A DNA stretch of 53,640 nucleotides, filler included, from Jimgerdemannia flammicorona (taxonomy: Eukaryota), in NCBI GenBank assembly GCA_003990765.1. It is 2 parts of 2 records of this genome, joined end to end, with 100 filler letters (N's around TTAATTAATTAA, not from the genome) between each part and the next. Parts side by side here need not be neighbours in the genome. Positions count along the whole stretch, not along the records: positions 1 to 26,770 come from RBNJ01000696.1; 1 more part is not named here. One strand, given 5' to 3'. Position numbers and translations under genes: made by a program. Position 1 is the stretch's first letter. Every line of letters starts with the position of its first letter. Of the stretch, positions 1 to 53,623 are shown in pieces. Below the pieces are notes generated by a model that was given only the letters and a program-made list of their open reading frames with translations, was not told where the DNA came from and made no database searches.

Positions 1-706
1 ACCGAACTCCTTGCACTACACCCAGCAAGTCAAGATGAAGAAGGTCTTATTGAAGCCTTCTTTACTCTTCTCAACAAGAGTTTTGTCAGCTCCACAAATC
101 CGAGCGACCTAGGACAACCAGCAGCAGTCTTTTTAGCCTTAGTTCCTCATGAAGTCCAAGCCTCTGTAGCCAAGTGGCTCAACTCTACCGACTTTCACCG
201 CACCAGGACCAAGACCGCATTATACATACTACTGATTCCAGAACAGCAAGGCCCGCCATATCCTTAAAGAAGAAGCAAGAGAAACCCTTCACCAACTACC
301 TGACCCTGAACCTGAAGCAGGCTCTGCTACAACTCTACCTGAATCTGAAACCAATACTGAACCTGAACTTGACTTTGAATTAAGTCCATCTGAAATCAGA
401 TATACAACTGATTCTGTCTACTTTGATGCCGAGCAAACCCAATTACACGGGGACTAAACTGAAGAAGAGGAGGAGTATCTCACTGAATTTGATCCCAGAT
501 ATACCACCGAAGGAGACACATATCCATCAGGACAGAATATACCTACACAGCAACAAACAGCTATCTATCAAGCCCTCACTCCAGATCCACAACTACTACT
601 CCAGCAACTTACACAGACCCAAAGAACCCCATCACACTCTGCACCAGTACCTCAAGTAGTACCAGTAACACCACTATCAGCAGTCCAACCGCCTCCAGTA
701 AACAAC

Positions 707-3142
707 ATGGCGAACCAACAGATTCTAGATCTCACAGCCCAAGTAGCTATAATGGCAGCAACTATTACTGCCTTAGCTGAACAGACCCGACCTACCAAAA
801 ATCTGAGCCTACCTACCTTCAATGGTACTGCACAAGAAGTCCAAAGCTTCATTAGTGTAGTTGACACCAACTTTGAAGCCAATCAATGAACCAATGAATG
901 AGTTACTGACCGCGTTCTGACAAACAATCAAGACCACACCCTGGAACAACTCTTTGCTACAACTACAGCCTATGTCCGCCGAGTTGTTATATTCTTCCGA
1001 GGACCTGCTGAAGAATGGTGGTGAACCCTTCCTGAAAAACCCCTCACATGGGATACTTGACCTGCAGTGATTGCTCAGAATACAGCAAATAATGCCCCAG
1101 GATATGGAGCCCATCCTGCAGCCCCTGGACTGAAACAACTCATGATTGCTCAATATCACAGCGAAACCATGATTGCCGAATCTCAAGTAAAACTCCGCAA
1201 CCTCAAATTTGATGTACATGGCAAGGAAGAATTCGAAACCTTCTGTACAAAACTTGAGTCACTCCTGAACACTATTGGCCTAGGATATATCGCCAACGAT
1301 GAAGCACGAAATGGTACAAGAGCAGACCATTTATTTGATGCACTGCCTGAATGGCTTACTAGAAAAATCCAAGAACAAGGCCGCCCAGTTGGTTGCGATC
1401 ACCAACAATGGTGCCTGGCAAGAATCAAGACCATGGTCAAGCGAATCCTAACAGCTGGACCAATTCTGCCCCGAAGGCAATTCAACAACAAGGAAAAGAC
1501 TTGGACCAAGAAAGAAGAACCCAAGCATGAAGCATCTCAAGCTCCCTCCACATCCACCTCTTGGACACTCAGAAATCCTGAACCCACCCAGCCAAGTACC
1601 TTCAAGAAACTTACTGAAGGTAAAAGGAATGAACTTCAAAGAAGCGGAGCATACTTCTATTGCCGAAAGACAGGACATATGGCCAGTGCCTGCCCCAACC
1701 GAAAACCCCGAACAGCAATACGAGCAATTGTTACCACTCTGCACCACCTCAACAACCTGACCACCAGAACACTAGACTTTGTCAAGTTAAGACAAACTGC
1801 TAAGGCCCCAACCAAAGGAAGTCAAAAAGCAGCCGGATATGACCTGTATGTAGCCGAAGAAGCTATGGTCTCCAACCGAGAAGTCAAACAAGTCTACACA
1901 GGAATCAGTATCCAAATCCCCGAAGGACATGTTGGAAGAATATGCTGTCACAGCAGCCTAGCATTGAAAGGACTCTCAGTAGAAGGAGGAGTCATTGACG
2001 AAGATTATATAGGCGAAATCATTGTTCTCATCCGAAATCACAGTTGGACACTCTTCAAGATCCCTATTGGCTTCTGCATTGCCCAGATCCTATTCGAAAA
2101 AATCGAGTCAACCCTGACAGTCAAGGAAGTCTCTGAACTACTACCCACCATCTGAGGATCCAAAGGATTTGGCTCATCAAACAAGGCCCCAGCCCAACCT
2201 ACTGTGAGCAAAGAAGAACAATTCTATAAGAAGATCGAAGATGGATATGTACCAAGTGGCCGATGCCCTCATGGTATTGGAATGTACTCTTCCCGAATGA
2301 TTGATGATTGCTTCTCTTGTATCAATGAACTGGCTCAAAGAAGAACCAACAGAAGAAAGGCTCCTACAACTGAAATCACCACTATTGGATCAGACAAACT
2401 GCTCACTCTTAAGGCTTTTGTCAATGGAGCACCTGTCAAGATTATGATAGACAGTGGTGTCTCAGGCAACTTTATCAATAAAGAGACAGCTAACAGACTC
2501 AAAGTCTTCACCTCCCCAGTACAGCAAACTCAAGCAGTTGCTACAGCTGATGGAACCTCACATGTTATTAGCAAAGAAGTCCGCAATCTACCCTTCCGAA
2601 TTGGTGACTACCGAGTACATGTTACTCTTCAAATTATACCACTTCCCGACAATGAAATCATCCTTGGGACTCCATGGTTAAAGCAAGAGAACCCCATGAT
2701 CGATTGGGTAAACCATTCGCTGACCATCAAGAAAGGACGCCACAACTTCAAACTATAAGGCAAAAAGAACCCACTCAATTCTAGTGACCCTGGACCAAAG
2801 ATCACCTATATCAACAAGTTACAACTCAAGAAATTGGCCAAGAAATGTCCTCTCTTCGCCATCTCCATCTGACCATCCAAAGGAGAACCCAAGAACTCTG
2901 TAGAAGACTTTTCCAAAGTTGACAGCCACGTCAGACCACTACTCCAGAAGGTCCGAGACATATTTCCAAACCGAACCACAGAACCACCTGCACCTGTCAT
3001 TATTAATGACCAAGAAGAATACAAAGTTGAACAAATCCTCAACAAATATAGCCACAAGAACCATCCAAATGGTACAACAACACCAGAATAAATTAGAAGG
3101 CCCCGACGAGGACGTCGAAAGCTAAGAAGGGGAGAGTTGTAA
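707..3142 (+). pseudogene. Gag-Zn knuckle-dUTPase-CPH motif-aspartic protease-partial chromodomain polyprotein, broken by C>T stops
   Basis: ORFs 707, 1067 and 2204 share one frame. Motifs: PTFNG...FFRGPAEEWW (gag), (Y)FYCRKTGHMASAC (knuckle), AAGYDL / HSSLA / GVIDEDYIGEI / IAQI / (R)GSKGFGSS (dUTPase motifs 1-5), IMIDSGVSGNFI and IILGTPWL (protease), EEYKVEQILNK (chromodomain start). Confidence 0.9.
3124..3136 (+). other. Polypurine tract of family A element
   Basis: AAGAAGGGGAGAG, separated by one base from the LTR start TGTAAG. Equivalent tract at 44153-44165 on the minus strand. Confidence 0.85.
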
Positions 3143-4633
3143 GCATACAACCTCCAAGCCACCAAAATCGCATGGTATCCTCAGAACTAATTTGGAAACC
3201 ACATGCGAGACTACAAAACAAGTTACTGAAGAGATCATCTGGTTACACAAATATGCCAGCAAGCATGAGAACCCACTGCCAAGATACAAGAATACTAGAA
3301 GAAGTACTACAACCATAAGACTGACTCTGAACCGCTATAGCTAGTTTGGTGTACCGTACTATTACAAAAGAAACTGAAAGTACCAAACTCAAATCAAGAC
3401 AAGAAGAACCCTATCTCACCCATCAAAAGGTTCACAAACTGTACTTATCAACTCAAGACCAAGATATACCGTGACTATACAAGACCTCATTATTTAGCAG
3501 AAGCAAAACGCATTTGAACAACTCTGTTCACTTTATCTGTGTCACCTCTGTTGGAGAGTGACGGACACTTCATCTGAACTCAAGAAAGCCGACAACGTCG
3601 AAACCAATCTCAAGCCATCCATGTGACAGATATTACTACTAGAAATTGCCTCAGATTATAGAAAATATCAATTCCGAGAGGTTCGAACCCCCAGCCGCGA
3701 CATTGGGAGCCCTCGCCCTAGACGAGAATGGCCAGTCCTCGCAAATGCGCCAGCAGACCAAAAAAAAAGAGAACCAAGACCTGTTATCCTTGTACAACCA
3801 CTACCACTAAGGACAGCCTTAATCTTACAAGAAATAGACGTGATGACATCTTGAAAACTGATGATGTCAGAAAAACTGCTCAGACTTTGCCAGTGATGAT
3901 GTCATCAATAGTGATGTCATCAAGGACTACCCAGATAGTGCCTAAACCTATAAATAGTCTAGCAGTCATAGTATAGATAGATTAGCCTTGTACGACATGA
4001 CTGTGAACTGACTCAGCAGTCAGACGATCTCTTGATATGTCAGATCACACTTGTACTATGTGACTGCATTCCGACTCAGCAAAGCACTTAGTGCTATATC
4101 CATATCTAGCCTAGTCCAGATAGCCCCTCACTAGTATAAATACCCCCTCCCCCAGACCTCAGAATCTCAGACAAAAACAGACTTGAACAATCCGAACACA
4201 ACTCCTGAGCACTTCCCCACAATATCCCTTCACACAAATACTCCTAGTATAGTAATATCATGAATAGCAAATAAATCTATTCCATAACCCACAAACCACT
4301 CTTAAGTAAATCTGCTCTCTGTTAGGTCCCACTCCTAACCCCATCACGAAATTTCCTAATTGGGTATTGTCTGCAGCGATATGCCAATTCAACTAAGCTG
4401 GTCTTAGTTTCTTGAACTTCCTGAAATACAGAAAATCCTGAACATCCAGAACTAGTCTGAAAAAGGACTTTGGTTGAGACATCAACCCGATCTTGAAATC
4501 AATAAGCATAGAGGATGTACTCCATACGAAATTGATCTTGACCATAAGAAAACGGTCTTTCAGAACATCCAGAATATCCAGAAAACCTTTCTAGAACTAT
4601 GTAACGGTTGCCCTAAAAAGTAACCCTCTTACA
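3138..4633 (+). repeat. 3' LTR of family A (about 1.5 kb)
   Basis: TGTAAG...CTTACA inverted ends. Homologous to 42649-44151 and 47545-48231 (minus strand). TATAAATA at 4135-4142. Confidence 0.9.
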
Positions 4634-6097
4634 CAACGCCTCTGGAACGCTGAATTTCACCTGCTGGGTTCCCAGCATCGTCACGTCCTCCCCAGGCTTG
4701 TTCCTGGAAGCCGGGCTATACCTGATTAGAGGGGAAGGGGTGGGGGAGTTCTCCCAGCCATCATCCCAAATCTCCAAGGTGCCGTCAGCATATAGGTCTC
4801 TAATCTCCACCTCCTTAGCCTTTCCAGACCCTGCCCCTTCGTTCCCACTCCTCTCACCAGCCCAGACACTCGCTCCGGCCCCTTCTGTACCCGTCCTCAT
4901 ACTCGCATCCTTCTGATGACCACCCCCCAGCTTGGCCAGCAAATCCTTCTGCCTCTTCCGCCCTTGAGCCCTTTCCCACTGCACCTTGTCCACTTGAATC
5001 CTCTTTCCATCCACCACCTCCAGGAGCGTTGACTCCTCGAAAGTCTTCCAGGCCTTAGCTCGCCATTCTACAGCCCCATCCAGCTCCTCCAGCACTTCCA
5101 ATAAATCTTCCTCCTCTTCTTCACTTCCTTTCACCCATATCACCTTGCACAGGAAAGCCCCCCAGACCAATACCAAAGACCAGTCCCTCGTCTTCCCAGT
5201 AGCCTCCTTCCCAGCCAGCCAAATCCTTACATCTACATCTCCAGTCCTGAGTGCAGTCCCTTCCCAGACCCTAAATCCGATATCCACCACCTTGCCATAC
5301 TCTGCCATAACATCCTCCACTCTCTTCCTCATCTCCATCGCCATCACCATGGGTACTCCTTTCACCAGCAGTTGGACTACCCTTGGATCCCATTTCAAAT
5401 ACCTCGCCATCGGAACATACACCTCCCCAACCACCAACCCAACCTTCAGCGCCTCCTCCAGAGGTTCCACCTCCTCAAATCCCACCTCCACCCCCTCCAG
5501 TCCCTTCAGAAACTTCACCGAAGCCGCTCCTGCCACCTGCTTAGCGATAAGCCCCAACACCATTTTTGCCATTACTGCTAAGTCCCGGAAACACAGCATG
5601 ACTACAAATGCCGAGATCGACTTCTTGAGTAACGGAGCCACCGCCAGTCCCATTACACCATCCACCAGGTCCCCAGGCCTTGTGCCCTTCCCACTGCTCG
5701 GCTCACCATCAGCAGTCCCATCTAGATTTTTTTCCAGATCACCCATCACACCCCCATCAGCAGTCCCCACCCCAGCCACTACTCCCCCAGCTCCACTCCT
5801 ATGGCCCTCCAGAGAGGCACCTCCAAGCGGTTGCTGCCTGGAAGCTACCACCGGTACCTTCCCCCCTCTCAGCCAGCTCTCCAGTCCAGCTCCCTGTCGA
5901 CCCCCCTTCACCTTCTCCGCAAAGCTCACCCTGCCAGACCCTTGACCTCCAGCTCCACCCCCTCTTCTACTACAGCCCCCCGCCAGCAGGCCCCTCATAC
6001 TTCTCCCCAAGCTGGGGCCTCTCTCCACTTGCTGCCATTCAAATACTCCAGAGCCACCCTGCTCAGTATGCACCTCTGGATGCTCATTGGTCGCCAT
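4634..6097 (-). CDS. Probable non-LTR retrotransposon (LINE) ORF1-like protein, truncated at the 3' end by the family A insertion
   Basis: 494-aa ORF with SFAEKVKG, VEVGFE..E.LEEAL..GL, LLVKGVP, MAEYGKVVDIG and RTGDVDVRIWL, an RRM-like pattern typical of fungal LINE ORF1. Its last codons (CKRVTF*) are read from the LTR. Confidence 0.6.
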
Positions 6098-6828
6098 GAT
6101 ACTAGTAGCTTTTCTCCAGAAACTGTGTCGAAAGTGTTGCCAAAGAGTTGTGTAACCTGAATGTTACCGGAGAAAGGTCTCTGCTCTCTTCTTTTATTCT
6201 TTTCTTTGTTCTTTTTCTTTGTTCTTTTTCATTGTTCTTTCCTGCCACATCATGAGCAAACAAAACAGCAGCCCTTAATTTGTATATTAGTCCAGTTTAC
6301 TCATTTTTCACTCTGCAATGATTGTCAAAAGAGGGAGTATTCGAGATGGAAATGCACTCTCTGCTGACAATGTTAGATTCTTTCTCATATGGACAGTACA
6401 CAAGCTGCTCATCAAGAGCCAAAGGGGTGACAGCAATAGTGATGGTGATGGCGATGGCGGGGATGAGGGAGAATTCCGGCAACAACTCATGGTGGCCCTT
6501 TAGACCTTGGAATTCATAGACCTCATAGCTATGTACATGGCAGCCTTTTTGGAGCAGCCGATAGTAGATGTAGGTTGCTCACTCAGCCGCCACTTGTTTA
6601 CTTGTGTTTATTTAAACTTCCCCAGCATGACCCAATTCACCTCGTACTTTTCTTAGGGTCCACAGCTCTATAGCGAGATCTGCTGACTTTATTCGCAACA
6701 TCTGGTCAAGATGAAGAAAGGCTGGTGAATGTTGTGGGGCATACCTTTGGTGGCTGAGCTGTTGAGTCAATGCATCACATGGCAGAGGTCTCAAAAGGAA
6801 CAGAAGCAAGCCTTTGTGAGCAATCTTG

Positions 6829-7170
6829 TGCAACTCATGCAACTCGTCAGCATGCAACTTGTCAGCATACAACTCGTCAGTATGCAGCTCACTCACTCAC
6901 TCACTCATGCTCTTTTTCTGAAATACCCATCTCCATATTTTATTTAATTTCATTTTTATGTGGTCTCCCCCTAAAAAACACCCACACCCGCACACAACCC
7001 ACCTGCACACAATCCGCCCACATACAACCCACCCACACACAACCTGCCCGCACACAACCTGCCTGTATGCAACCCGCCTGCAACCTGCCCATACACAACC
7101 CACCCACATGTAACCTACCCACACGCAACCTGCCTGCATACAACCCATCTGCATACAACCTATCTGCATA
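6829..7170. repeat. Two 15-bp minisatellites (ATGCAACTCGTCAGC-like x~4; ACACAACCCGCCCGC-like x~12), probably intronic
   Basis: Visible degenerate tandem units between a GTGAGC donor (about 6816) and a CCCTCAG acceptor (7188). Confidence 0.7.
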
Positions 7171-7188
7171 CTTATCTCGGTCCCTCAG

Positions 7189-8420
7189 ATCAGAGCTCAG
7201 TTCCATTGGAAAGGAGAGTTCAAAGTTACCTAAGTTCAACCATGTCCGGCATCTGATCAAATAGAGAAATTCAAGGGCAAGATATTCAGCATGAGTAGTA
7301 CCAGTATCATCATCAAGGCTTGGGGGTCTACATTCGAATCAGAGCCAATCATACTCGACCAAGGGGTCCATTGGCCAGTAGGAGTAACCAACAATGAAAA
7401 GAACCATATCTTTATTAACAAATGTAGAGAGGTAGTTACAATGGTGGTAAGGAACCTCTATGGTGATAAGCTTCGCCGCCACATCAATGAGATTTGCAAG
7501 GATTGTGTCAAATACCAGGTGGCAGGAAAGAGGGGGTGAAAAAAGCAAGGAGGGGGGGTTTGGACGGAAATTGGATATACTGTAACACTGGTGAAGAGTG
7601 GGTTCTGGAGTTCCGAAATCCCCTGCACTTATCTCCCTTTTTTTTTAACCCCTTCTCAGATAAATCACACTCTTCACCAATATACTCTTTTTGATACAAT
7701 TCTAGAGATGCACAAGATTCTATACCCCTACTGGAACTTTAGAAGTACCATTAAAGAGCAAACTGCATGTGAGCACGATACAGCCTGTGCAGCGATGGCA
7801 GCTATGATCTGGGGTTCTTTGAGCAGATTGGTAGAGCATATGGCAGGCCAGCTTGATGGTGATCTTGGTGCAGCTGTACATATATTCTTGGTGCAATTTA
7901 GTATACCGTATGAGGTGAGGAGCTCTGCTTTTTCAGAGTGCTGCAGTCTGGGGGATTTCTGCCCCCCTGTATGCAAAAAGGACTGACTGGTTGCCATCCA
8001 TTTTGGCAGGTTTCCAAGCCGGGGCTCCCAAGGCTGGACCAAGGGCAGGTGTCCACCAGCATAGCCTGGCAGTATGAGGTCCTGGGCCAAGGGTTCACCC
8101 AACTGTACACTTATGTCATATCAGGATATATCAGGCACAACCTTTTTCTGCCCACACACACAGATAACAATATCACTCTGGTAATGTTTTATGTTCCAGA
8201 AAGGAAGGGCCCAACCTGGGAGAACAGTGGCAGAATCTGGTATGATCTCACCTATGGTTTCAGGGTCCCATTTGCAGCCAACATGGCCATCCTATTCCAA
8301 CTACACAACCACCATGGCACCATCGCCTTTGAGGAGAGCTTGGATACAACAGTCATTGCACTTACAATAGATGATAGGCTCATCAAGGCCTGGGACCGGT
8401 GGGTGGAGCAGTTTTTGTGA
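7189..8420 (+). pseudogene. TET/JBP-like Fe(II)-dependent dioxygenase, spliced and probably disrupted (upstream exons may extend to about 6300)
   Basis: Last exon 8010-8420 follows a phase-0 GT-AG intron (7915-8009, branch-like GACTGAC). It encodes HNLFLPTHTD (HxD at 8157-8165), a hydrophobic strand, G.I..L.YGFRVPF..NMAILF and HHGT (His at 8313), matching the TET/JBP double-stranded beta-helix layout. There is a stop and a frameshift in the upstream exon. Confidence 0.6.
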
Positions 8421-9261
8421 GGGTTAGGCAATCTTTCATGAGGGTTAGGCAGCCATTTTGTACAGATTGGGCAGCCATTTTGTGCAGGTTGGGCAGTCTT
8501 ATGTAGGCTGGGCGCCTCTTATGTAATACTAGCTTAGCTGTTATGCAGGGCCCTACTAGCCCCTCAGCCCTGCTCTGTAGTGCTGCTGGTGCAGTACTGC
8601 AGCGTAGGGCCGAGGTGCCCATGGGATCCGAACTGGTGACTTCAACCACCAGAAACACCCTCCAACTGCCAGAAGCACCCTTCGCCCCAGACTCCTTAGC
8701 AGCTTGGGGCTGCCCCTATGCCACTGGTGGAGGGCTGCAAATTTTGCACACTCCCTCTACCTACCCTGCCTGTCTCAAATACTTGCGGCTTGGGGCTGCC
8801 CCTTGCTGCTGGTAGAGGGCTACAAATTTTGCACACTCTCTCTGCTGACTCCATGCCCGCCAACCCGCCAACTGACCCCACCCACTGACCTGGGTGCTGA
8901 CAGCTTGGAGCTGCCCCTTGCTACTGGCAGAGGGCTGCAAATTTTGCATGCTCCCTCTACCTACCCCTCCAACCTGGACACTTGTGGCTTGGGGCTGCTC
9001 CTTGCTACCAGCAGAGAGTTGCAAATTTTGTGCACTCCCTCTGCTGACCCACCGACCTACCCACTGACCTGGGCACTGGCAGCTTGGGACTGCCCCTTGC
9101 TGCTGGCTGAGGGCTGCAAATATTGTACACTCCCTCTGCCACCACTACCAACCCCACCCCACTTGGGCCGCAAACTCCAGGCCAAGTCCTTAGGTTTTTT
9201 TTTCCTTTTTTATTATTTTGAAAGGTATTAATTTGAAAGGTATTAATTTGAAAGGTATTAA
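8420..9261. repeat. Tandem repeat cluster between the convergent TET-like and hAT genes
   Basis: Units of about 20 bp (GGGTTAGGCAGCCATTTTGT-like) at 8420-8524; about five units of 70-110 bp with the core GCTTGGGGCTGCCCCTTGCT...GAGGGCTGCAAATTTTGCACACTCCCTCT at 8699-9140; TTTGAAAGGTATTAA x3 at 9217-9261. Confidence 0.8.
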
Positions 9262-17700: not shown

Positions 17701-18808
17701 GATTGGGTTGAAATTGCGGGTCTCGCCTACCCGTAAAACATAATCACATGACGACAATAATAATGATAATAAACACGTACCCCCAGAGACCCTATGGACC
17801 TTATGCTGCACGAAAAAATACACCATCGGTACGAGCATCAGAAAGAATGCCCCGCACAGATACCGCCTATACTTGAGTCCCTTCGATCCCTGCACGGTGC
17901 GCGGGTTCGTGGCGAGGACGCCGAACATCCATGGGATTGTGAGGACGAGGTATGATATCATGGCGATGTCGTGGACATTGTGGTCGTCCGACGATGTGAT
18001 GTATACCCAGCCGCCGCAGGACACAGTGCGGGCCAGGCCGACCCAGAGCAGGATTTGTGAGAAGAAGCGAGAGGCAGTTGGGCGCGAGGGGAGAGTGATT
18101 AGGAGGTACCAGAGATAGACCAAGGCGAAGCGTGGGCCTATGGGGAAAAGGGGGACGAAAGGTGAGTTTGGACTGGGGAATGGAAGGAGGAATTTAGGTG
18201 GCCATGTACCTGAGGTCAGAGCGATGAAAATGTGGAAGATGGCGCGGGCGGGGTACCAGTCCCCCGTAGTGGCGCTCACACTGGGAAACCATTCCTGGGA
18301 GGGTATGGGTTAGAGTAATGGATAAATGAACGGCAAATGTATTATGCGAGTCATCACTTCTAACTCGATAACGCATTCCATAACCAAACGGCCCGCATAC
18401 CTCTGGGTATCCATAGTATTCGTTCCGTACGATCTTATGATAATGGGTATAACAACCGACGATGAGCGCAAAGAAGAAGGCGCCTGGGAAGAAGGTAGTC
18501 CAAATGTAAATTTATCTTGTCGCCACGTGGCATGCAAGAGAAAAAAATTTTGAGCTCAATATTCCGATTAATCAAAAGATACTCACAGTACGCAAAGGTG
18601 GTATGCGAGTATGATATGTAGGTCGCGGGTATCTACACAAAATTCATGAACCGAACGGACCAACCGAGTCGCGACATCCCGAATGTCAGAAGTGGAAGCA
18701 AAGACGCGTTCCCTTGTAACTCGGGTCGGATAGGGGGCAGCATACCTTTGCCAGGACGGCGCCGCGGGGGGCGGGTGGGTTGTGTTGGTCCGTCTTATCC
18801 GAGGCCAT
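14744..18808 (-). CDS. CWH43: CWH43 / PGAP2-interacting GPI lipid-remodelling protein, about 989 aa, 9 exons: 18808-18746, 18632-18587, 18483-18401, 18294-18210, 18137-17781, 17679-17517, 17156-17068, 16952-15633, 15507-14744
   Basis: GT-AG introns with consistent phases join [35 protein letters not shown] (Frag1/PGAP2 domain), FVFWSMLTSL, WYFPLWHMGISGYE, AGIWTIHFALDNDMWASE, GLLESDTQRIIMGNRD, HTWGC, HNGQEED, DRWCQY and SDTEIQ (endo/exonuclease-phosphatase-like C-terminus). Confidence 0.95.
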
Positions 18809-26476: not shown

Positions 26477-26770
26477 GCCGAGCAGGTGTGACGTGGTGTG
26501 ATGTGGAAGGCGCTACGGGTTTTTGTACAATACCGTCAATCCGCTCCATATACATAAATACATGTACCCTCGCATCTGTTCGTGACACACATACATTCAC
26601 ACATTATCATAGTCCGTCCTCTACTGCCCTCGCTCGTAGATAAGCGTGAGTAGAAAATATATATTTAAAATATATATTTTAAAACCATCGTGAAGGCAGC
26701 TGTGAGCTTGTTCTTTTATTTATGCGTGTTTATTTGTCGCAAGATAAAATAACAGTTTCTCGGGAAAAAA

Positions 26771-28084: not shown

Positions 28085-31000
28085 ATCAACAGAACTGCTC
28101 TTAGTTCTTACACACTTATATCTATCTACAGGATGAATTCTTAAGTTCAATCAGATCTTCTGAGGATAGATGCTTGAATCAGTCTGATCTTGAGCTCATC
28201 AAATGCTTTTTGTTATCTGCCTGTCTATTAGAACTTGATATCCTTCTTATTAAGTTTATAGATTGGGTCTGCAATGTTGGAGAATTTTCTAATAAATCTA
28301 TAATAGTATATATAAAGGCAAGTCCCATAAAGGCTTGGGCTTTAGTAACAGTAGTAGGTCTTAGATATACTATTATATACTGCTTGTATCTTAAGGGGGT
28401 CTATGTGTATTCTATCTTAGTTAATAATATAGTCAAGATAGGAGATCTCAATTTCTGCAAATTTGTATTTCTTGGACTTAATGTAACATTTTAGCATAGT
28501 TTATATCTTTTCTCTGTCTTTCTTGAATATTCTATAACCTTCCAGCACTTTCCACATACTTAGAAATCCCCTTTTTGATACCAAGTATTAACTAGTACTT
28601 ATTTAGCTAGTCACGGAATATCCTGGAAACTTGTAGAACTTTATTTATCATCATTTATCATCTTTGCTAAGAACTTTCCTCTTGGCATTTTCTTTTGATT
28701 TCTCAGATCCTTCTGGATCCTTTCTTTAGATCTTGTATAAATATCCCCTTTGTTCTCATAAATAAAGTCTCAGAATATTTTCTCCTAGAAATCCTTTAAG
28801 AATACTTGAATCCTTAAGTATCTCTTTGAGCTACTTAGAACTACCAGAACTAGTTGCTTCCTTATTTAGAAATGAGAACCATTATACTTAATATATAGAT
28901 CATACTTCCTTAGCTTCTCCATCATCTGCTGGATATATTGCAGATATTTCTCTGGTGTCTGGTTATAGATAATCATATTATCTATATAAATTATTATCCA
29001 TCTTTCTATATTATAGTAGAAGATTTTGTTCATCATTTACTAGAAGTTTGCTGGTATGTATATTGTATATTTTGAATAATATTTATAGATAGATATAGAT
29101 TCTATCTAAGGTGATAAAGACTGACTTCTCACTTGCTGCTTCTATAAGACTGATTTGGTAGAATTCTGAATATAAGTCTAAGATACTATAATACTATACT
29201 TTATCTCCTAGAGTTATAAGAATATTGCTGATAAGTGGTAGTGATTAGTAATTCTTCTTAGTGATCAGATTGAGTTTTCTATAATTAGTACAGAGTCTTG
29301 AAGTAAATTTTCTAGATTTGCTTCTCTTCTTCAGAGCTAATATAACTAGTAAAGCCCAAGGACTACTGATTTTTTTTAAAGATATTAGCTTCTTTTATTT
29401 ATTTAATTTCTTCTCTAAGTCATTTATAGTAGGCTGGTGGAATTGATCTTACTTTTTAGTAAATTGATTCAGTATCTCTTATATCTATATTATAGTAATA
29501 ATGTGAAGTTTTTCTCTTAATATCTTTAAAATCTATAGCTAGAATATTCTCAAATTTATAGAGTATCTTCTTGAGTTTCTTCTTAAGTAGAAATTTATTT
29601 CTGATAGTATAGCTATACTTGTTTATAATTTTCTCCTTTTTGTGATCTAGTTTAGTAATCTTGATACTAGTGAATACTTCTCTTCTAATAGATCTAAATC
29701 CTTTTCTTTCTCTTTCTATTTTCTCCAACTTCTTAACTTCTATAATTTTTGGCTAAAAGACTGAAAAGATTAATATTTATATCAGATAGTCCTTCTTTTT
29801 GATTGGAAATAGTATTATAGACTTATAGTTTCTTATAATAAGTAATATTTCTCCAATATAGTTTAAATTGATAACTCTTCCTTTAATGGTGATTTTACTT
29901 TAAGTCAGACTGCTTTTTATTTTGAGAATTTCAATATGGTTTTTTAGAATGATCATCTCCAGATTAGTTATAAGTAAGGTGGTTGTCTGAAGCTTAAGTA
30001 TAGGTTTCTCTACTATGGTAATATCTATTTCAGCTATATTTTCTAACTTGTATTCTGATAGAACTATATCAGAGTGAATCTTTTGAATCTTAACCTTGAT
30101 TTCTTCTTCATCATTACTATCTTCTAGGAGGGCTGGTGGTTCATTATTCTCTTCTTTATTCTCTTCTTCTTTCTCCTCTCTTATCTGTTTCTCAAGGGCC
30201 TTCTGTCTTTTTTGATAGTAGATATCCTTGATTTTATTAATATACTGATAGTAATCATTAATATACTCTATATAGTATATTTTGATCTTATGGGGGCAGA
30301 CTCTTTATGGTATATATCTTTTTATAATCTTCTTATATCAGTCTTCTTCACTTATCTATCTAATCTTCTTCTTCTTTTTCTGAATAGTTACTATGTAAGC
30401 TTTCTTTTGCTCACTTTTTTCTTTCTCTATTTTAGATAGAACTCCTTTTTGATATTGATGAAAATTTACATCTTCTGTCTCTGATAGATAATTTACATTT
30501 AGATTAATTATTATTCTAACTTTATAAAGTCATTAGTTGTTGATAAGAATATCATAATTAGTTATATTGGTCATAATTATATCTACTGAGATAGTTACTC
30601 CTCCAAACTTGATAGGAATATCTTGAATCTTTTCCAGAGATATGGCTCTTATACTATCTGCTATAATAAATATTAATTTGGTTACTTCTTCAATCTCTCA
30701 ACCTAGGTGGTCTGTTGTTTTCTTACTGAGAAGATATTCTTTTGCTCTATTATCAATAATAACTTAGAAGACTCTATCTTCAATCTGATAAGTTATATAA
30801 ACAGAGGTCTTATAATTATCTTTACTTCTTTTTCAGAGTTCTCTTAAATATTATTGGTCTTAGTTAACTTTCAATCTTAATTCTTGATTATCTTGGTCAG
30901 TCTAAATCTTATTTACTATCTGGATATAGGTATTTCTACCAATTGGCCAAAGGTTATACATATTGACCTTTTGTTTGCTGAGATCTTTGAATATATTATA

Positions 31001-34467: not shown

Positions 34468-34496
34468 ACTTAGTGCCCATTAGCTGGTGATTCAAG

Positions 34497-37400
34497 ATGA
34501 ATATCTCACTTTCAAGCTGAAAAACAAACAACCTCTACAATAACTACCCTGACTACAAGAGTCACCCCTGTAAGAATTCAAGACAAGATGGAAATATACC
34601 CCTCAACATTCTATGGATATACTACTGAAGAGTCAATCCTGACCTTCATTGAAGACTTTGAACAATTTGCTGCTGTATAAGCCTTTGGTATGGATGCTCA
34701 ATTGGCCCTTCTACCAGTCAGCCTCAGAGGACCTGCTAGAGATAAGTTCAATATAGCCACCATTGCTGATACTAGTGCAGCCAAACTTGCCAACATAAAG
34801 GTCTTCCTCAGAACAACATATTATACTGAAGAGATCAAGCAAGCTCTCAAGGATCAACTCAATACTATCTGCCAGGGACTTAGTGAAGATCCCAACTCAT
34901 TCTATACCCAAATATGCCACTAGATTGTCTTGGCTGGCTATGATGACTGCCTCAAGGAACAAATAGCAGATTCAACTTTCCTCAAAGGAATTCACCCTGA
35001 AATTGCCCTAGCAATCTGGTCTACCCTAGCTGCACTAACCCTTGATCAGAAAGTGGTCTTTGCATAGAGATATTGGACTGCCAGACACCCTATCGAACAC
35101 TCAATGGAGAAAATAACTGGCATCAAGATAGAGCCATCAAAGCTAACTAGTATCATACCTGCTACAGTGGTAAACAGATAAACAACTCCACCTACCCCCA
35201 AGATAGCCAAAGCTAACTCAGTGGAAGAACTCACCAAGTAGTTTGCTGAGATGACTGTACACCTTGGTGATGTTGTTAGAGAAGTCTAAAGTGCCAATAG
35301 GAGACCAGTACAGAGATTTGCAGCTGCTATAGAAGAATGCAATATCATATACTTTAGGTATAGAGAAGAAGGCCACTACACAAAGAGTTGCATGACTGAA
35401 ACAAGATGCAAAGCCCAACCAAGCAATGCTAGCAGAACCAGAGAACAAACCAATGCAGTAGTTATCAAGGAGATTGGTGACACTGATGATGAAGAATATT
35501 ACGAGAAGCTTGAATTCTACCCTACTACTGAAGGTACCAGAACCCAGTCCAAGCCCTATGACAAGAAGAGCAACAGCAAGCCAGTTGGAAGATCAAAGAA
35601 AACCCCAGCTATCACTATTCAAAGCAAGATCCAACCCAAAGAGATTGATCAAGACATAGAGTTAGATGAAGCCGCCTACCAAATCATTGAAGGTACTACT
35701 CCAGTCTCAAGAGAAAGTGAAAGCAAGAAGGAACAAAAGCTGTGCAAGACCAAGATTCACCAGTATGATATCTACAAAGATCTTAAGGAATAGAAGGTCA
35801 ATGCCACTTTTGGACAGCTAGCTGAAGTTCCTACCTTCAGACAGCAGTTGAGAGTAGAACTTGCAACTACTGTCAAGAATCAAGAGAACAAGATTGTAGA
35901 AGCTCACAATGTACAGAAAGAATCCAAGAACTCAGATAAAGAATCTGAAGATCAGTGCAAGACATCAGCCTATACTCTATGTCAGATTGAAGACTGTATC
36001 TTTGATACTATTATTGATACTGGTGCTGAAGGATGCCTCATAAGCAAGAAGGCAATTGACTACCTAGGTTGGGACATTGAAGAGTCTACCAAGATGGTCT
36101 ATATTATAGCAGATAGTATATGAGCTACCCCCTTTTGCAAAATCTGAGAAGTCTCCATCAAGATAGAAGGAGCTACCATTTCAGTAGATGTGATTGTCAC
36201 AAGCACCACCAACTATAACATCCTCATTGGCAATCAATGGCTTCACAAGGCCAAGGCTATTATTGACCTCAATGCCCAGAAGATGTAAATCAACTATAGA
36301 GAGAGAAAGGTATGAGTCTCTATTAATGTTCATAAAAGAGTTCTACCAGATATAGAGGAAGGAGATGAAGAGGACACAGAGGTCTTCATACACTCAGTAA
36401 ATAAGAACAAGAATAAGACACCTAAGCTCACAGATGAGCAGTGGTACAACAAGATCATTGATGGGTATGTCTCTCAAGAAAGATGCCCCCATGGTACTAG
36501 AATGTACTGCTCAGAATACCTGAATGACTGCTGGTCCTGTATCAGTGAAGTCAGGAAAATCCACCAATAGAAATATGAGCAAGAAGCCACCAAAGCAAAA
36601 AGGAAAGCCAAAGAAGATGACCAGCCCCCAGAGTTTCAGGCTGACAGCAATGATGAGGAGGACAAGAATCAGACATCACCCTCAAGGTTAAGAAGTTTCA
36701 CCCTAAAGCCAAGATTCCAGAATATAAGACTGAAGGAGCCATAGAAATAGACCTTGCCAGCATTCAAGATGTTACTGTCAAACCACAGACCACCACCCTA
36801 CTTGGTACTGGAATTGGAGTTAAGCTGCCAGAGAACCATGCCAAAATTATCAAGACCAGGAGCAGTCTGGTCAAAAGTGAAATCTCAGTTAAAGGAGGAG
36901 TAATTGACCCTGATTACACTGGCAAGATCTTCCTCATAGTCAGAAATCACAACCCCACCACCTCCTTTGAAGTCAAGAAGCATGACAGGATTGGCCAGAT
37001 GCTGATCCACAAAATCAAGAAGTCCAAGATCATAGAAGCCATCAAACTCATCAAGACCAAGAGAGGAGAACAAGACTTTGGATCTACTAGAAGAGGAGCC
37101 TATGCCACCACCAAAATTACTAAACTTGAGCACAAGAAAGACAAGGACCAGAATAAGTACATATATACTATTGGAGAAAACTTTCCACTGGAGGAACAAC
37201 TTTTCAAGATCCTGTACCAGAACAAAGAAGTACTTACTATAGACTTCAGGGATATCCACAATCAAGAACCCAAGTACTACCATGAAGTTGATACTGGTGA
37301 TATCAAGCCCATCTACCAGAAAGCCAGACCCATACCACTTGCCTACAGAGAGTGGCTACAAGCAGAACTCAAGGAAATAGAAGAAGCCGGGATCATCAAG

Positions 37401-39798: not shown

Positions 39799-40111
39799 CA
39801 GCATGTCCTATGACCAGTAGGCTATCTGTCTGGACCATTCTCTAAGGGATATGGTACTGGCAACTACTCATCTGCGAGACTTTTAAAGTCAGAAGAGTTT
39901 GAACCATCAACTGATTGGTCAAGATCAGAATCAGGCCCTTGCTCTATATGAAGAGAGTAATCCTTCACCATTATACCAAAATACAATGAGAAGATGCCAG
40001 TCCATAAATACCACTTTTTGATCCCTTGCTAGAGGTTATGGGATCAGCAAATTTTTCAGGACTGGACTAATGAATAAGGATGCTTGAGAAGATCCTTATT
40101 CAGGAGGAAGA

Positions 40112-42648: not shown

Positions 42649-45600
42649 TGTAAGAGGGTTTACTTTTTAGAGTAACTGTTACATAGTTCTGAAAGAGTTT
42701 TCTGAAAGTTCTGGATATTCTGAAAGACCATTTTCTTAAGGTCAAGATCAATTTCATATAGAGTATGTCCTCTATACTTATTGATTTTAAGATCAAGTTG
42801 ATGTCTCAATCAAAGTTCTTTTTTGGACTAGTTCTGAATGTTCAGGATTTTCCATATTTTAGGAAGTTTAAGAAACTAAGACCAGCTTAGTTGAATTGGC
42901 ATATTGTTGCAGACAATACCCAATTAGGAAATTTCATAACAGAGATAGGAGTGGAACCTAACAGGGAGCAGATTTACTTAAGAGTGGTTTGTGGGTTATT
43001 AAATAGGTTTATTCACTATTCATAATATTGCTATACTAGGAGTAATTGTATGAAGGAATATTGTGGAGAAGTGCTCAGGAGTTGTGTTTGGATTGTTTAA
43101 GTCTTTAAGTCTGAGATTCTGAGATCTAGGAGAGGGGATATTTATACTAGTGAGGGACTATCTGAACTATGCTAAATGTGGATATAGCACTTAGTGCCTT
43201 GCTGAGTCAAAATACAGTTATGTAGTACAAATGTGATCTGATATATCAAGAGAGCATCTAACTGCTGAGTCAGTTTACAGTCACATTGTATAAGACTAAT
43301 CTAACTATACTTATAATTGCTAAGCTATTTATAGATTTAGATACTGTCTGGTTAGTCTTTGATGACATCACTATTGATGACATCATTGCTGACAAAGTCT
43401 GAGCAGTTTTCTGACTTCTGATATCATCAGTTTCAAAGGTGTTGTTACTTTTATCTCTTGCAAGATTAAGACTGTTCTTGATAGTAGTAGTTATACAAGG
43501 ATAACAGGTCTTGGTTCTCTTTTTTTTTTGGTCTGCTGGCATATTTGTAAGGACTGGCTATCCTTGTCTAGGGTGAGGGCTCTCAATATCATGGCTGGGG
43601 GTTCAAATCTCTTAGAAATGATATTTTCTATAATCCAAGACAATTTCTAGTAGTAATATCTGTCACATGGATGGCTTGAGATTGGGTTTGATAATATTGG
43701 CTTCTTGAGTTCAGATGAAGCATCTGTTACTCTCCAATAGAGGTGACACAGATAGAGTGAATGAAGTTGTTCAAATATGTTGTGCTTCTGCTAAGTAATG
43801 AGGTCTTATATAGTCATAGTATATCTTAGTCTTGAGTTCGATAAGTGCAATTCATGAACTCTTGATAGATGAGATAGGGTCCTTCTTGTCTTGGTTTGAG
43901 TTTGGTACTTTTGGTTTCTTTTTGTAATAATACAGTATACCAAATAGTTATAAAGGTTCAGAGTCAGTCTTATGGTTATAGTACTTCTTCTGATATTCTT
44001 GTATCTTGGTGGTAGGTTCTTGTATTTGCTGGTGTATTTTGTATAATCAGATGATCTCTTCAGTAACTTGTTTTGTAGTCTCACATGTGGTTTCCAAATT
44101 AGTTCTGAGGATGATATGTGATTTTAGTGGCTTGGAGATTATGTGCTTACAACTCTCCTCTTCTTAGTTTTTGACATCCTCATCAGAGTCTTCTAATTTG
44201 TTCTAGTATTGTTGTACCATTTGGATGGTTCTTGTGGCTATGTTTGTTAAGGATTTGTTTAACTTTATATTCTTCTTGGTCATTAATAATGACAGGTGCA
44301 GGTGATTCTATAGTTCAGTTCAGAAATATATCTTGGACTTTCTGGAGTAGGGGTCTAATGTGGCTATCAACTTTGGAAAAGTCTTCTTTAGAGTTTTCAG
44401 ATTCTCCTTTAGATGGACAGATGGAGATGGCAAAGAGAGGATATTTCTTGGCCAATTTCCTGAGCTGTAGCTTATTGATGTGAGTGATCTTTGGTCCAGG
44501 GTCACTAGAGTTGAGTGAGTCTTTTTTGCATTGCAGTTTGAAGTTGTGGTGTCCTTTCTTGATGGTCAGAGAATGGTTTATCCAATCGATCATGGGGTTC
44601 TCTTGTTTCAACCATAGGGTTCTAAGAATGATCTCATTGTCAGGAAGTGGTACAATTTGGAGGGTAATATATACTTGATAGTCACCAATTTGAAAGGGTA
44701 GATTGCAGACTTCCTTGCTAATGATATATGAGGTTCTATCAGCTGTGGCAACTACTTGAGTTTGTTGTACTGGAGAGGTGAAAACCTTGAGTCTGTTGGT
44801 TGTTTCTTCATTGATAAAGTTGCCTGAGGTACTACTGGCTATCATAATCTTAACAGGTGCTCAGTTGACAAAAGCTTGGAGTGTAAGCAGTTTGTCTGAT
44901 CCAATGGTAGTGATTTCAGTTATAGGAGCTTTCTTTCTGTTAGTTCTTCTTTGAGCCAATTCATTGACACAAGAGAAATAGTCATCAATTATTCAGGAAG
45001 AGTATATTCCAATGCCATGAGGGCATTGGCCACTAGGTATATATCTATTTTCGATTTTCTTATGGAATTGTTCTTCTTTGTTCATAATAGGTTGGGCTGG
45101 AGCCTTATTTGATGAGCTAAATCCTTTAGATCCTTGGATGGTAGATAGTAGTTCAGGGACTTCCTTAACTATCAGAGTTGACTCGATTTTCTCAAATAGG
45201 ATCTGGGTAATACAGAAACCAATAGGGATCTTGAAGAGTATCCAACTATGGTTTCAGATAAGGACAATAATTTCACCTGTATAATCTTCATCAATGACTC
45301 CCCCTTCTACTAAGAGTCCTTTCAATGCTAGGCTGCTGCGACAGCATATTATTCCAATATGTCCTTCAAGGATTTGGATGCTGATTCCTGTGTAGATTTG
45401 CTTGACTTCTCAGTTGGAAACTGTAGCTTCTTTGGCTATATACAGGTCATATCTAGCTGCCTTTTGACTTCCTTTGGTTGGGGCCTTAGCAGTTTGTCTT
45501 AACTTGACAAAATCCAGTATTCTGGTAGTTAGGTTATTGAGGTGGTATAGAGTAGTAACAGTTGCTCATATTGCTGTTCAGGGTTTTTGGTTGGAGCAGG

Positions 45601-51200: not shown

Positions 51201-53623
51201 TAGTATTGTCTAATTCAAACTGTTTCCAAGTCTAGTTGATGATTGTGATTGTCTAGGGTTCAAGGTGGTTAGACATCTTCTGCTACCCAAGGTAGCTGAT
51301 TAATCCATAGTATAGCTCCTTATTCATGTTGAATAGTCTTGATGGGGGTGTTTTGGGGTGTTCTTGAGAGTGTATCGGCATTGGTGTTAGTCTTTCCTGA
51401 GCAGTGCTTGATAGTACAGTCATACATACTCTTGTAGCCTGTAGATCCATCTGACATATATGTATTCCTTTGGGGTTCAGAGTGTGGAATAGCCAGGCAA
51501 GAGCAGAATAGTCTGTTTGAATAGTGAAGTGTTTTCTGGCTAGGTAGTAGTGGAACTTATCTACTGCTCAAACTACTGCTAAGCATTCAAGCTTGCATGA
51601 CTCGTAGTTCTGTTCTGCTCTGTGGGTATCTCAGCTTACATAGGAGATGACATATTTATATCCATCTTTCTTCTGAGCTAGAACTGCTCTAAGTCTTATA
51701 GCACTCATGTCTATCTGCAGGATGAATTCTAGGTTCCAGTCTGGTCTTCTGAGGATAGGTGCTTGAGTCAACCTGATCTTGAGTTCATTGAAGGTTTCTT
51801 GGCACTCCTTGATCCATTCAAATTTGGTCTCCTTCTTCAGTAGCTCATAGATAGGTACTGTAATGTTGGAGTATCCTTTGATGAATCTTCTGTAGTAGCT
51901 GGCCAGTCCAAGAAAGGCATGGACTTCTGTGGTTGTTCTGGGTCTTGGATAGACTGCAACAGCCTCAATCTTTATAGGGTCTATATAGATTCTGGTCTGG
52001 TTGATGAGGTGTCCTAGGTAGGTGATTTCCTGGGCTGCAAACTTGCATTTCTTGGGCTTGATGTAGAGGCCATATTCCTTGAGCTTCTTGAGGGCTAGCT
52101 GTATGTGATTGATATGTTCTCGTGCAGTATTGCTGAAGATGATCATATCATCAACATAGACAAAGAGCCATTTTCCAATCTCATTGCTGAAGACTCTGTT
52201 CATCATTCACTGGAAACTTGCTGGGGCATTGCACATTCCAAATGGCATTTGCAGGTAGATATAGGTGGTGTCAGATGTAATAAAGGCTGATTTCTCACTG
52301 GCATTTTAAGTGAGACCATCTGATGGAAGCCTGAGAACAGATCCAAGGTGGTATAGTATTTGGCTTCACTTCCAAGGGTGGTAAGGATTTCTTGAATATT
52401 TGGCAAGGGCTGCCTATCCTTCTTGGTGATGGCATTGAGCTTTCTGTAGTCAATGCAGAGTCTTGGTGCAAACTCTCCAGACTTGCTTCCTTTCTTTGGG
52501 GCAAGGACAATGGGTGAAGCCCAGGGGCTGATAGCTTGCTTGATGATCCCAGCTTCTTCCATTTCCTTGAGTTCTGCTCGCAGCCACTCTCTGTAGGCAA
52601 GTGGTATGGGTCTGGCTTTCTGGTAGATGGGCTTGGTATTACCAGTGTCAACTTCATGGTAGTACTTGGGTTCTTGATTGTGGATATCCCTAAAGTCTGT
52701 AGCAAGTACTTCTTCATTCTGATGGAGGATCTTGAGAAGTTGTTCCTCCAGGAGAAATTTTTCTCCAATGGTATATGTGTGCTTGTTCTGGTTCTTGTCT
52801 TTCTTGTGCTCAAGTTCAGTAATCTTGGTGGTGGCATAGACTCCTCTTCTAGTAGATCCAAAGCCTTGTTCTCCTCTCTTGATCTTGATGAGTTTGATGG
52901 CTTCAATGATCTTGGGTTTTTTGATTTCATAGATCAGCATCTGACCAATCCTGTCATGCTTCTTGACTTTGAAGGGGGTGGTGTGGTTGTGATTTCTGAC
53001 TATGAGGAAGATCTCGCCAGTGTAATCAGGGTCAGTTACTTCTCCTTCAACTGAGATTTTGCTTTTGGCCAGACTGCTCCTGGTCTTGATAATTCTGGCA
53101 TAGTTTTCTGGCAGCTTGACTTCAATTCCAGTACCAAGTAGGGTGGTGGTCTGTGGTTTGAGGGTAGTATCTTGAATGTTGGCAAGGTCCATTCCTATGG
53201 CTCCTTCAGTTTTGTATTCTGGGATCTTGGCTTTGAGGTGAAACTTCTTGACCTTGAGGGTGATGTCTGATTCTTATTCCTCCTCATCATCACTATCAGC
53301 TTGAAGCTCTGGGGGCTGGTCATCTTCTTCAGCTTTTCTTTTTGCTTCATGTTCATGTTTTTATTGGCAGATTTTCCTGACTTCACTGATATAGGACCAG
53401 CAGTCATTCAGGTGTTCTGAGCAGTACATCCTAGTACCATGGGGGCATCTTCCTTGAGGGATATAGCCATCAATGATCTTGTTATACCACTGCTCATCTG
53501 TGAGCTTAAGTGTCTTGTTCTTATTCTTGTTCACCAAGTACATGAAGACCTCTGTGTCTTCTTCATCTCCTTCCTCCATGTCTAGTAGAACTCCTTTGTG
53601 GACATTGATAGAGACTCATACCT
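48232..53623 (-). mobile_element. Family B copy 3 (3' LTR 48232-49766, PPT 49767-49776, integrase, RNase H, RT, dUTPase, CPH motif; runs off the window)
   Basis: Reverse-complement colinear with about 36305-41627. Retains RT VYVDDMIIFS (ORF 51631-52206) and the dUTPase-RT ORF 52203-53192. Confidence 0.93.

Follow-up and report, generated by a model that had tools for sequence, protein, structure and literature searches.

Annotation of retroelement polyproteins draws on a small set of parts (Gag/NC, PR, RT, RH, IN, chromodomain and sometimes dUTPase), and the stretches between these domains are usually dismissed as linkers. The locus analyzed here, a window of 53,640 nucleotides (filler included) from Jimgerdemannia flammicorona, raises the question of what one such stretch might be: a module of approximately 40-45 residues with the Cys/His spacing C-x-H-x12-C-x2-C, which is present in five copies in five Gypsy-type LTR elements of the window. 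A preliminary description of this DNA had proposed a small zinc-binding domain that accompanies the dUTPase in three Gypsy families and could not be assigned to a named retroelement domain.

Copies of the module were searched by tblastn of the two peptides quoted in that description (A and B) against the whole window. Exactly five related places were found (Table 1), and the next match was unrelated (E 0.012). The copies described earlier are thus real, with the spacing kept in all five, and the three peptide strings given for them agree letter for letter with our translations. In tblastn, the module of A2 is 75% identical to that of A1 over 61 amino acids (E 9e-31) and the module of B2 is 86% identical to that of B1 over 50 amino acids; copy C was matched with E values of 1e-6 to 1e-8 and lies in DNA of 27-30% G+C. 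In B1, a TAG follows the module at 36561-36563, and the frame changes between the module and the dUTPase.

Table 1. Module copies and accompanying features of the host elements, in coordinates of the window.
Feature	Position	Strand	Remarks
Module copy A1	2213..2332	+	Intact; ligand motif C-x-H-x12-C-x2-C at 2264-2320; tblastn and translation
Module copy A2	44957..45076	-	Decayed; in-frame stop; third ligand Cys to Tyr; tblastn
Module copy B1	36433..36552	+	All ligands intact; motif at 36484-36540
Module copy B2	53379..53498	-	Fourth ligand Cys to Tyr; tblastn
Module copy C	30230..30349	-	Relic; two in-frame stops; third and fourth ligand Cys to Tyr
Gag CCHC zinc knuckle of A1	1652..1696	+	Weak Pfam zf-CCHC match, E 0.023
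dUTPase of A1	1769..2185	+	Directly upstream of module; Pfam PF00692, E 5.7e-29
Aspartic protease of A1	2390..2740	+	D-S-G at 2441-2473; downstream of module
dUTPase of A2	45104..45517	-	tblastn with P0020
Aspartic protease of B1	35974..36285	+	D-T-G; upstream of module; translation and alignment to P0020
dUTPase of B1	36672..37100	+	Downstream of module, then RT; tblastn and translation
dUTPase of B2	52845..53258	-	tblastn with P0007
Protease of C	about 30497-30763	-	Upstream of module
dUTPase relic of C	29672..30100	-	Downstream of module; translation and P0020 alignment
LTR pair of A2	42649-43337 / 47545-48232		
LTR pair of B1	32952-34467 / 40112-41627		

All four ligands are intact in two of the five window copies, A1 and B1. 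The six-frame translation of the window contains two instances of the strict pattern C.H.{12}C..C, at these same places (2264-2320 and 36484-36540), compared to a mean of 0.05 and a maximum of 1 in 100 base shuffles. In A2, B2 and C, Tyr stands at ligand positions by change of TGC/TGT to TAC/TAT (G>A); the ligand deviations in the window are TGY>TAY transitions in decayed copies, as had been described for copy C, where they affect both the third and the fourth ligand. The modules of A1 and B1 have 23 of 40 residues in common, and 10 of these 23 are encoded by different codons, which indicates constraint on the protein and not on the RNA.

The host elements are Ty3/Gypsy LTR retrotransposons, as judged from LTR pairs, protease matches in Pfam (RVP_2 and gag-asp_proteas for A1, E 2e-12 to 6e-12), RT (PF00078, present in P0001 and P0020, which are close relatives from the database) and an integrase stretch recognized from the translation. 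The neighbor of the module in A1, as distinct from the module itself, belongs to the trimeric dUTPases (101 bits against PF00692, cut-off 22); its in-frame TGA at 2153-2155 corresponds to Arg in the 94%-identical P0001. Elements A and B retain a CCHC-type knuckle in Gag, and that of A1 is a separate, conventional knuckle distinct from the module. In element C, a single alignment to P0020 covers the whole stretch from protease through module to dUTPase. Since elements B and C are 65-70% identical at the nucleotide level and have the same domain order, they represent one lineage and not two independent families; the earlier count of three families was thus too high, and the window contains two architectures plus a heavily decayed relative of the second. 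A scan for Gypsy elements without dUTPase elsewhere in the window revealed no retroelement domain in 27 open frames, taken from 39 of at least 110 amino acids in 4634-27900 after omission of 12 that overlie a host gene.

The domain order is Gag-dUTPase-module-protease in family A and Gag-protease-module-dUTPase-RT in B and C. It is hence mirrored between the two architectures, a feature absent from the preliminary description. Among database proteins, the order dUTPase-module was seen in 12 and module-dUTPase in 3, with the protease on the far side of the module wherever the sequence was long enough, and linker lengths vary on both flanks. The constant feature is therefore the placement of the module between protease and dUTPase. 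A dUTPase adjoins the module in 5/5 window copies and was seen in 15 of 19 module-bearing database proteins, the other four being too short or truncated to tell; none of the matched proteins demonstrably lacks the enzyme. One of the module-bearing proteins, P0006 (157 amino acids), has 54 residues ahead of the module and 53 behind it; it shows no dUTPase and may be an exception or a broken copy. In the Gypsy-type proteins P0024, P0027 and P0030, the protease is directly followed by dUTPase without a module, which implies that dUTPase works in such elements without it. The earlier proposal that the module moves with the dUTPase is accordingly an oversimplification. In A, the module lies on the C-terminal side of the dUTPase, in B and C on its N-terminal side, so that no rigid cassette is involved. 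Moreover, the module stands beside the protease as constantly as beside the dUTPase, so that position alone names neither as the partner served.

A module-only profile gave 17 matches at E<=0.001 among 1.84 billion proteins. Thirteen of these were judged genuine relatives (E 4e-22 to 1e-5) and four repeat-protein artefacts. A profile of 15 sequences matched 16 proteins, 14 of which carry a precomputed PF00692 dUTPase annotation; a word-indexed search with the A1 module returned one near-identical protein as its sole match. Overall, 19 module-bearing database proteins were collected; 18 of the modules are complete, and 15 of these have the exact Cys/His spacing. The first Cys is invariant in the 15-row module alignment, the Pro, the His and the other two Cys are conserved to at least 90%, and the core spacing is free of indels across 21 aligned rows. 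Of the segments compared between families A and B, the module is conserved best, with 51% identity compared to 39% for dUTPase, 37.5% for RT and approximately 30% over 30 amino acids for the protease. These results bear out the earlier notion of a small domain, in that the stretch is a discrete conserved protein module. On visual reading of the alignments, a Lys/Arg-rich helix follows the last Cys in most members.

We found no named domain that accounts for the module in Pfam, PDB sequences, Foldseek searches of PDB and BFVD, or the ESM Atlas, in line with the preliminary description. The Pfam search of the module returned no family at E<=10. For the 15 aligned members at the same threshold, seven scattered families appeared, each in one or two members and all below cut-off; they were rejected, and PF00098 was not among them. 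Foldseek gave no match at E<=0.001 against PDB or BFVD (best PDB match E 2, TM 0.31; best BFVD match E 3.2), and the classical C2H2 fingers near the top of the list (E 2-10, TM about 0.3) were not significant. The best feature scores in the ESM Atlas, 0.79 and 0.78, were below a useful level; zinc-ribbon and Stc1 clusters surfaced there as leads only. A profile search of PDB sequences yielded only a 10-residue match, CPHG..Y, to 8h1g_A (E 2.7). It recalls the CPHGRP metal-binding motif of the MutL C-terminus, which is embedded in the MutL endonuclease domain, and was judged to be a chance match.

The module also differs from zinc modules already known in retroelements. zf-CCHC (PF00098) and the integrase HHCC finger are small, zinc-stabilized units of retroelement polyproteins, but their ligand order, spacing and position are different: the former is spaced C-x2-C-x4-H-x4-C and was not matched by the module in Pfam, and the N-terminal finger of integrase is spaced H-x3-7-H-x23-32-C-x2-C, whereas the module, placed between protease and dUTPase, is distant from the integrase. 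Descent from a duplicated Gag knuckle or integrase finger of the element itself was rejected as well, because hhalign of the module profile gave a probability of 0.4% against the Gag CCHC stretch and likewise 0.4% against the HHCC stretch of the B1 integrase. Among Gypsy polyproteins, ligands in the non-canonical order Cys-His-Cys-Cys are described for the CsRn1 clade of Ty3/Gypsy, where the signature CHCC (C-x2-H-x9-C-x3-C) lies in the C-terminal part of Gag and replaces CCHC (PMC2582038). These are animal elements without dUTPase; spacing and position differ from those of the module, and both A and B keep their CCHC-type Gag knuckle, so that the module is not of the CsRn1 type.

AlphaFold2 predicted a confident small fold for the module (pLDDT 86.6), with helices at 6-15, 33-38 and 40-51 and a hairpin at 22-23/29-30. 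In the model of the P0003 polyprotein, the module reaches a pLDDT of 83-87 and is flanked by segments below 50. This suggests that the module is a self-folding unit. In the prediction, the hairpin turn contains Cys24 and His26, and the start of a helix contains Cys39 and Cys42. In treble-clef-like fingers, a beta-hairpin knuckle supplies two ligands and the opening turn of a helix the other two; as judged from secondary structure and pLDDT, the predicted hairpin around Cys24/His26 and the helix from 40 with Cys39/Cys42 would be compatible with this arrangement. On the basis of the ligand pattern and the predicted secondary structure, the four ligands probably bind one zinc. A complex prediction of three B1 dUTPase chains with the B1 module and Zn, in which alignments were unused and the partner fold was uncertain, gave a score of 0.01 (mark 0.34) and speaks neither for nor against such binding.

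Taken together, our tentative overall reading, which we consider nearly as probable as not, is that of a zinc-stabilized accessory domain that tethers dUTPase in the replication particle. The module would be a self-folding Gag-Pol accessory domain of approximately 45 residues, restricted to a narrow group of dUTPase-bearing Ty3/Gypsy LTR retrotransposons. Its core would comprise a helix, a short hairpin with a Cys-Pro-His-Gly turn and then helices starting at Cys-x2-Cys, with the four ligands most likely holding one zinc between a zinc knuckle and a helix N-terminus in a treble-clef-like manner. Flexible linkers of variable length would connect it to the protease on one side and the dUTPase on the other, in either order. 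By binding nucleic acid or another particle protein, the module would anchor dUTPase inside the replication particle, and the anchored enzyme would keep dUTP low at the site of reverse transcription. Fused nucleocapsid knuckles are thought to tether likewise in betaretroviral NC-dUTPase. Since no sequence or structural relative of known function was found, nucleic-acid binding is argued here by analogy alone, and we regard the tethering role taken for itself as somewhat doubtful.

The NC-dUTPase fusion of Mason-Pfizer monkey virus binds oligonucleotide, according to PMC1802613. As portrayed in that source, Cys/His zinc modules are flexibly linked to a trimeric dUTPase between gag and protease, and the layout of family A, Gag(CCHC)-dUTPase-...-protease, is the same. 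The betaretroviral modules are ordinary Gag knuckles (C-x2-C-x4-H-x4-C), whereas the elements studied here have the normal Gag knuckle plus the additional C-x-H-x12-C-x2-C module, which in family A lies beyond the dUTPase and in B precedes it. A second parallel is provided by the Juno LTR retrotransposons of bdelloid rotifers, for which an "extra Zn knuckle" after the dUTPase is described (PMC5408684). In that description, Juno is likewise Gypsy-like; its dUTPase lies between protease and RT, and the additional zinc motif adjoins the enzyme in pol. In contrast to the module, the Juno motif follows the dUTPase instead of lying between dUTPase and protease, and its hosts are animals; the comparison is by description, and the account in PMC5408684, which terms the motif a Zn knuckle, describes no sequence relation to the module. 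Fungal Gypsy elements with dUTPase have been reported as well, namely PosPlaTy3-3/-4/-5 and elements of Phanerochaete and Tuber, in which the position of the dUTPase is variable (PMC2864245). These belong to the same class as the elements described here and include cases with dUTPase between protease and RT; the main text of that paper lists CCHC and HHCC motifs, with no Cys/His module beside the dUTPase and no occurrence of the word "zinc".

The tether has to be weighed against other explanations of the same data. It is very unlikely that the stretch is a mere conserved linker or cleavage-site region with an incidental Cys/His pattern and no metal site. The failure to match a named zinc-finger family in Pfam and the C-x-H spacing of the first two ligands, which is unusual for a knuckle, would fit such a linker; yet conservation is highest at the four ligand columns, no indel interrupts the core in the 21 aligned rows, and the predicted fold is compact, while the true linkers to either side vary in length and are modeled with low confidence. 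An unlikely reading in our assessment, although a better one, is a protease-side regulator, i.e., a folded spacer that times or restrains protease dimerization and self-cleavage beside the trimerizing dUTPase, in a role comparable to that of the transframe p6* peptide upstream of the HIV-1 protease. According to abstracts on p6*, a short adjacent segment can modulate how a retroviral protease is activated. The module indeed always lies between a dimeric and a trimeric enzyme, and it adjoins the protease in 5/5 window copies and in all database proteins whose flanks are long enough (the protease follows the module in P0001, P0003, P0005 and P0015 and precedes it in P0014, P0020 and P0023). However, every Gypsy element has a protease, whereas the module was found only in dUTPase-bearing ones (14/16, none demonstrably without); module-free proteins with protease and dUTPase exist, so any symmetry clash is tolerated, and the module precedes the protease in A but follows it in B, at distances that vary.

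The mirrored domain orders cannot be interconverted by a single block move, and they would be explained if the module had been exchanged as a separate block. One such reading, which we likewise consider improbable, is that of an independently mobile block, recombined or template-switched among divergent Gypsy lineages apart from dUTPase and protease, with a generic function such as binding of a host factor or chromatin protein that is unlinked to dUTPase chemistry. A related proposal, to which we give slightly more credit but which remains rather unlikely, is a new CHCC zinc-finger family that couples captured dUTPase to the reverse-transcription complex and is swapped as a block among these lineages. 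The identity of the A and B modules exceeds that of RT and dUTPase, as would be expected of a mobile block, but stronger constraint alone could explain this. In a dUTPase tree built from those 15 segments, out of 24, that reach 105 residues (the 9 shorter fragments were left out), the module-bearing rows do not form one clade, and the AU test on all 15 rows rejects a single clade (p 0.0096). After removal of the long-branch rows P0014 and P0029, a single clade was no longer rejected (p 0.078), so that the answer to the question of a single origin hangs on these two rows. Nor are the two architectures separated in the module tree, but this tree, based on 51 columns, has support for only 2 of 18 inner branches. 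Finally, so strict an association with dUTPase speaks for a function linked to it and against a block of generic use.

With its 19 database proteins, the scope of the finding is narrow; it is a modest but real addition to the catalogue of retroelement domains and changes no major concept. The module is a conserved unit, confidently folded in prediction and probably metal-binding, which has no Pfam family and is tied to a sporadically captured dUTPase. A profile of the module would improve the annotation of fungal Gypsy elements and mark this lineage. If the proposed tether is true, it would be the third independent zinc module joined to a retroelement dUTPase, after betaretroviral NC-dUTPase and the knuckle of rotifer Juno, and the three together would suggest that a retroelement gains little from a dUTPase without an anchor.

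The preliminary description had placed the C-x-H-x12-C-x2-C module at five sites, and tblastn with its peptides recovered exactly five related places at the same coordinates (nearest unrelated match in the window, E 0.012). We found the strict pattern twice in the six frames of the window, in the Gypsy-type elements A1 and B1, compared to a mean of 0.05 in 100 shuffles. In the three remaining copies, Cys is replaced by Tyr through TGY>TAY, with the register kept; the preliminary description gave this G>A change for C. Of the 23 residues common to A1 and B1, 10 are encoded by different codons. In a 15-row module alignment, the first Cys is invariant, and the Pro, the His and the two other Cys are at least 90% conserved; the Cys/His spacing is exact in all but three of the 18 complete database modules. 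Identity between families A and B is 51% in the module, 39% in the dUTPase, 37.5% in the reverse transcriptase (RT) and about 30% over 30 residues in the protease.

The module lies constantly between protease and dUTPase, and the order of these three domains is mirrored, a feature absent from the preliminary description: family A reads Gag, dUTPase, module, aspartic protease, whereas in families B and C the order is Gag, protease, module, acidic linker, dUTPase, RT, integrase. The TGA at 2153 of A1 corresponds to Arg in the 94%-identical database protein P0001, which runs on into RT; intact family A therefore forms one reading frame. The protease-module-dUTPase layout of P0020, an intact relative of B/C, is likewise in one frame. 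As to the three Gypsy families originally proposed, the A and B architectures are indeed distinct, but B and C are one lineage because they share 65–70% nucleotide identity and the same domain order.

Elements, domains and host gene located in the window
Feature	Position	Strand	Details	Basis
Element A1	1-4633	+	3' LTR 3945-4633	self-comparison
A1 Gag CCHC knuckle	1652-1696	+		
A1 dUTPase	1769-2185	+		PF00692, E 5.7e-29
A1 module	2213-2332	+		
A1 aspartic protease	2390-2740	+		RVP_2, E 6e-12
Host gene, PGAP2IP/Cwh43-like	about 14744-18309	-	Frag1 + PGAP2IP domains	E down to 2e-92
Element C	about 27800-32900	-	relic, 27-30% G+C	
Element B1	32952-41627	+	1.5 kb LTRs 32952-34467, 40112-41627	self-comparison
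B1 protease	35974-36285	+		
B1 module	36433-36552	+	acidic linker follows	
B1 dUTPase	36672-37100	+	RT, integrase follow	
Element A2	42649-48232	-	LTRs 42649-43337, 47545-48232	self-comparison
Element B2	window end to 48231	-		self-comparison

The window is eukaryotic DNA of fungal appearance, and self-comparison delimited five decayed Gypsy-type LTR elements in it. A1 (2933-3088) and the part of A2 collinear with it (42649-47284, minus strand) have an internal deletion in common, which points to a non-autonomous derivative that retained Gag-dUTPase-module-protease and was therefore copied at least twice. The alignment of A1 to P0001 ends at 2974, right where RT begins, and the frame continues into a stretch that by eye is integrase-end or chromodomain-like, and then into the 3' LTR. 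B1 is itself defective: the codon after the module that is Gln in P0020 reads TAG, and a frame change precedes the dUTPase (36561-36700). Differences between LTR copies of A and B are nearly all transitions (in the B copies, including 48231-49766, at 253 of 266 polarised sites); C>T/G>A changes are most frequent, mostly in CpA context (93/160). This bias and the low G+C of element C resemble RIP-type repeat mutation. A2 has B-family LTR sequence at both borders, a 200-bp LTR start fragment on one side (42450-42648) and the whole B2 LTR in opposite orientation on the other (48231-49766), which suggests nested insertion and rearrangement.

Outside the elements, the domains of the host gene comprise two transmembrane regions plus one nuclease-like domain; the gene spans several frames and presumably contains introns. 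Internal direct repeats (8699-9153; period about 90–200 bp, 68–77% identity) occupy sequence of about 50% G+C in which Pfam recognises no open frame. A 372-codon frame (19723-20838, minus strand) has a weak F-box-like match below the cut-off (E 0.0016), and several further long frames in 4998-9228 and 25013-26512 gave no Pfam match.

A 3-sequence, 50-position module-only profile searched against 1.84 billion representative proteins gave 17 matches at E ≤ 0.001, 13 of which (E 4e-22 to 1e-5) were judged genuine by reading the sequences; P0008, P0016, P0017 and P0018, repeat proteins matched over 13–33 positions in several stretches, were dropped. A 15-sequence profile, considering proteins of 94–2000 residues, yielded 16 proteins, 14 with a precomputed dUTPase domain. 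Local HMM searches detected the module in 19 of the 30 proteins collected, a small family. Fifteen of these 19 have a dUTPase, which precedes the module in 12 and follows it in three. The four others are uninformative or ambiguous: P0023 breaks off within the module, P0010 (a fragment) and P0009 are 63 and 82 residues long, and P0006 (157 residues, about 54 on each side of the module) is the sole possible exception. The converse association does not hold, as a dUTPase does not imply the module: seven of eight matches to the A1 dUTPase lack it. In the Gypsy-type P0024, P0027 and P0030 the protease runs directly into the dUTPase. Also module-less are P0025 and P0026, with the dUTPase in a different, by eye possibly Copia-type context, P0029, labelled vertebrate (caecilian) by its source, and P0028, without any further recognised domain. 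The proposal that the module moves with the dUTPase thus holds for co-occurrence, but not for the mirrored order or these module-less dUTPases.

In agreement with the earlier statement that no named retroelement domain is assignable, the module found no Pfam family at E ≤ 10, and 15 relatives gave scattered sub-threshold matches only. A PDB sequence profile search returned a single 10-residue CPHG match to MutL (E 2.7), Foldseek at best E 2 in PDB and 3.2 in BFVD, and ESM Atlas searches 0.78–0.79. Derivation from the Gag CCHC knuckle or the integrase HHCC finger of the same element was rejected (hhalign probability 0.4% each). Fungal Gypsy elements carry dUTPases at variable positions (PMC2864245), and the main text of that article describes no Cys/His module beside them. 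In CsRn1-clade elements, Gag contains the motif C-x2-H-x9-C-x3-C (PMC2582038). In the full texts searched, which take in few subscription journals and not the 2008 papers on Phanerochaete and Tuber, we found no description of the module. The module is a real, unnamed mini-domain that probably binds zinc.

AlphaFold2 on the module alignment (mean pLDDT 86.6) predicted a helix (6-15), a hairpin (22-23/29-30) and two helices (33-38, 40-51). The turn of the hairpin then carries Cys24 and His26, and Cys39 and Cys42 lie where the last helix starts, a predicted layout that sites combining a zinc knuckle with a helix typically show, with a putative metal site; that the module is a metal-free conserved linker appears very unlikely. 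In a model of the 320-residue P0003, dUTPase (pLDDT 75–93) and module (83–87) are both confident, whatever lies between or behind them scores under 50, and linkers on either side vary in length among relatives. The module thus forms a discrete domain with flexible tethers.

The module-bearing dUTPases do not form one clade in a tree of the 15 rows that reach 105 residues or more; the AU test rejects such a clade (p 0.0096), and gives p 0.078 after removal of two long-branch rows. The module tree gives no resolution. DUTPase-module-protease cannot be converted to protease-module-dUTPase by shifting one block, and either a single origin or modular exchange may underlie the module-bearing dUTPases. 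That the module is exchanged freely and serves a generic role in binding seems improbable. We tentatively favour, at somewhat less than an even chance, a zinc-stabilised accessory domain that would anchor the dUTPase in the replication particle, because the module occurs exclusively with dUTPase, is flexibly tethered, has a basic helix following the last Cys and has two precedents, the extra Zn knuckle after the dUTPase of rotifer Juno elements (PMC5408684) and the betaretroviral NC-dUTPase fusion that binds oligonucleotide (PMC1802613). Against such anchoring stand the module-less protease-dUTPase elements and the module's adjacency to the protease, as constant as that to the dUTPase; the latter favours a protease-side regulator, which we nevertheless consider unlikely. 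Overall, accessory Cys/His modules of retroelement polyproteins are a known kind of feature, and the module described here is a further sort.
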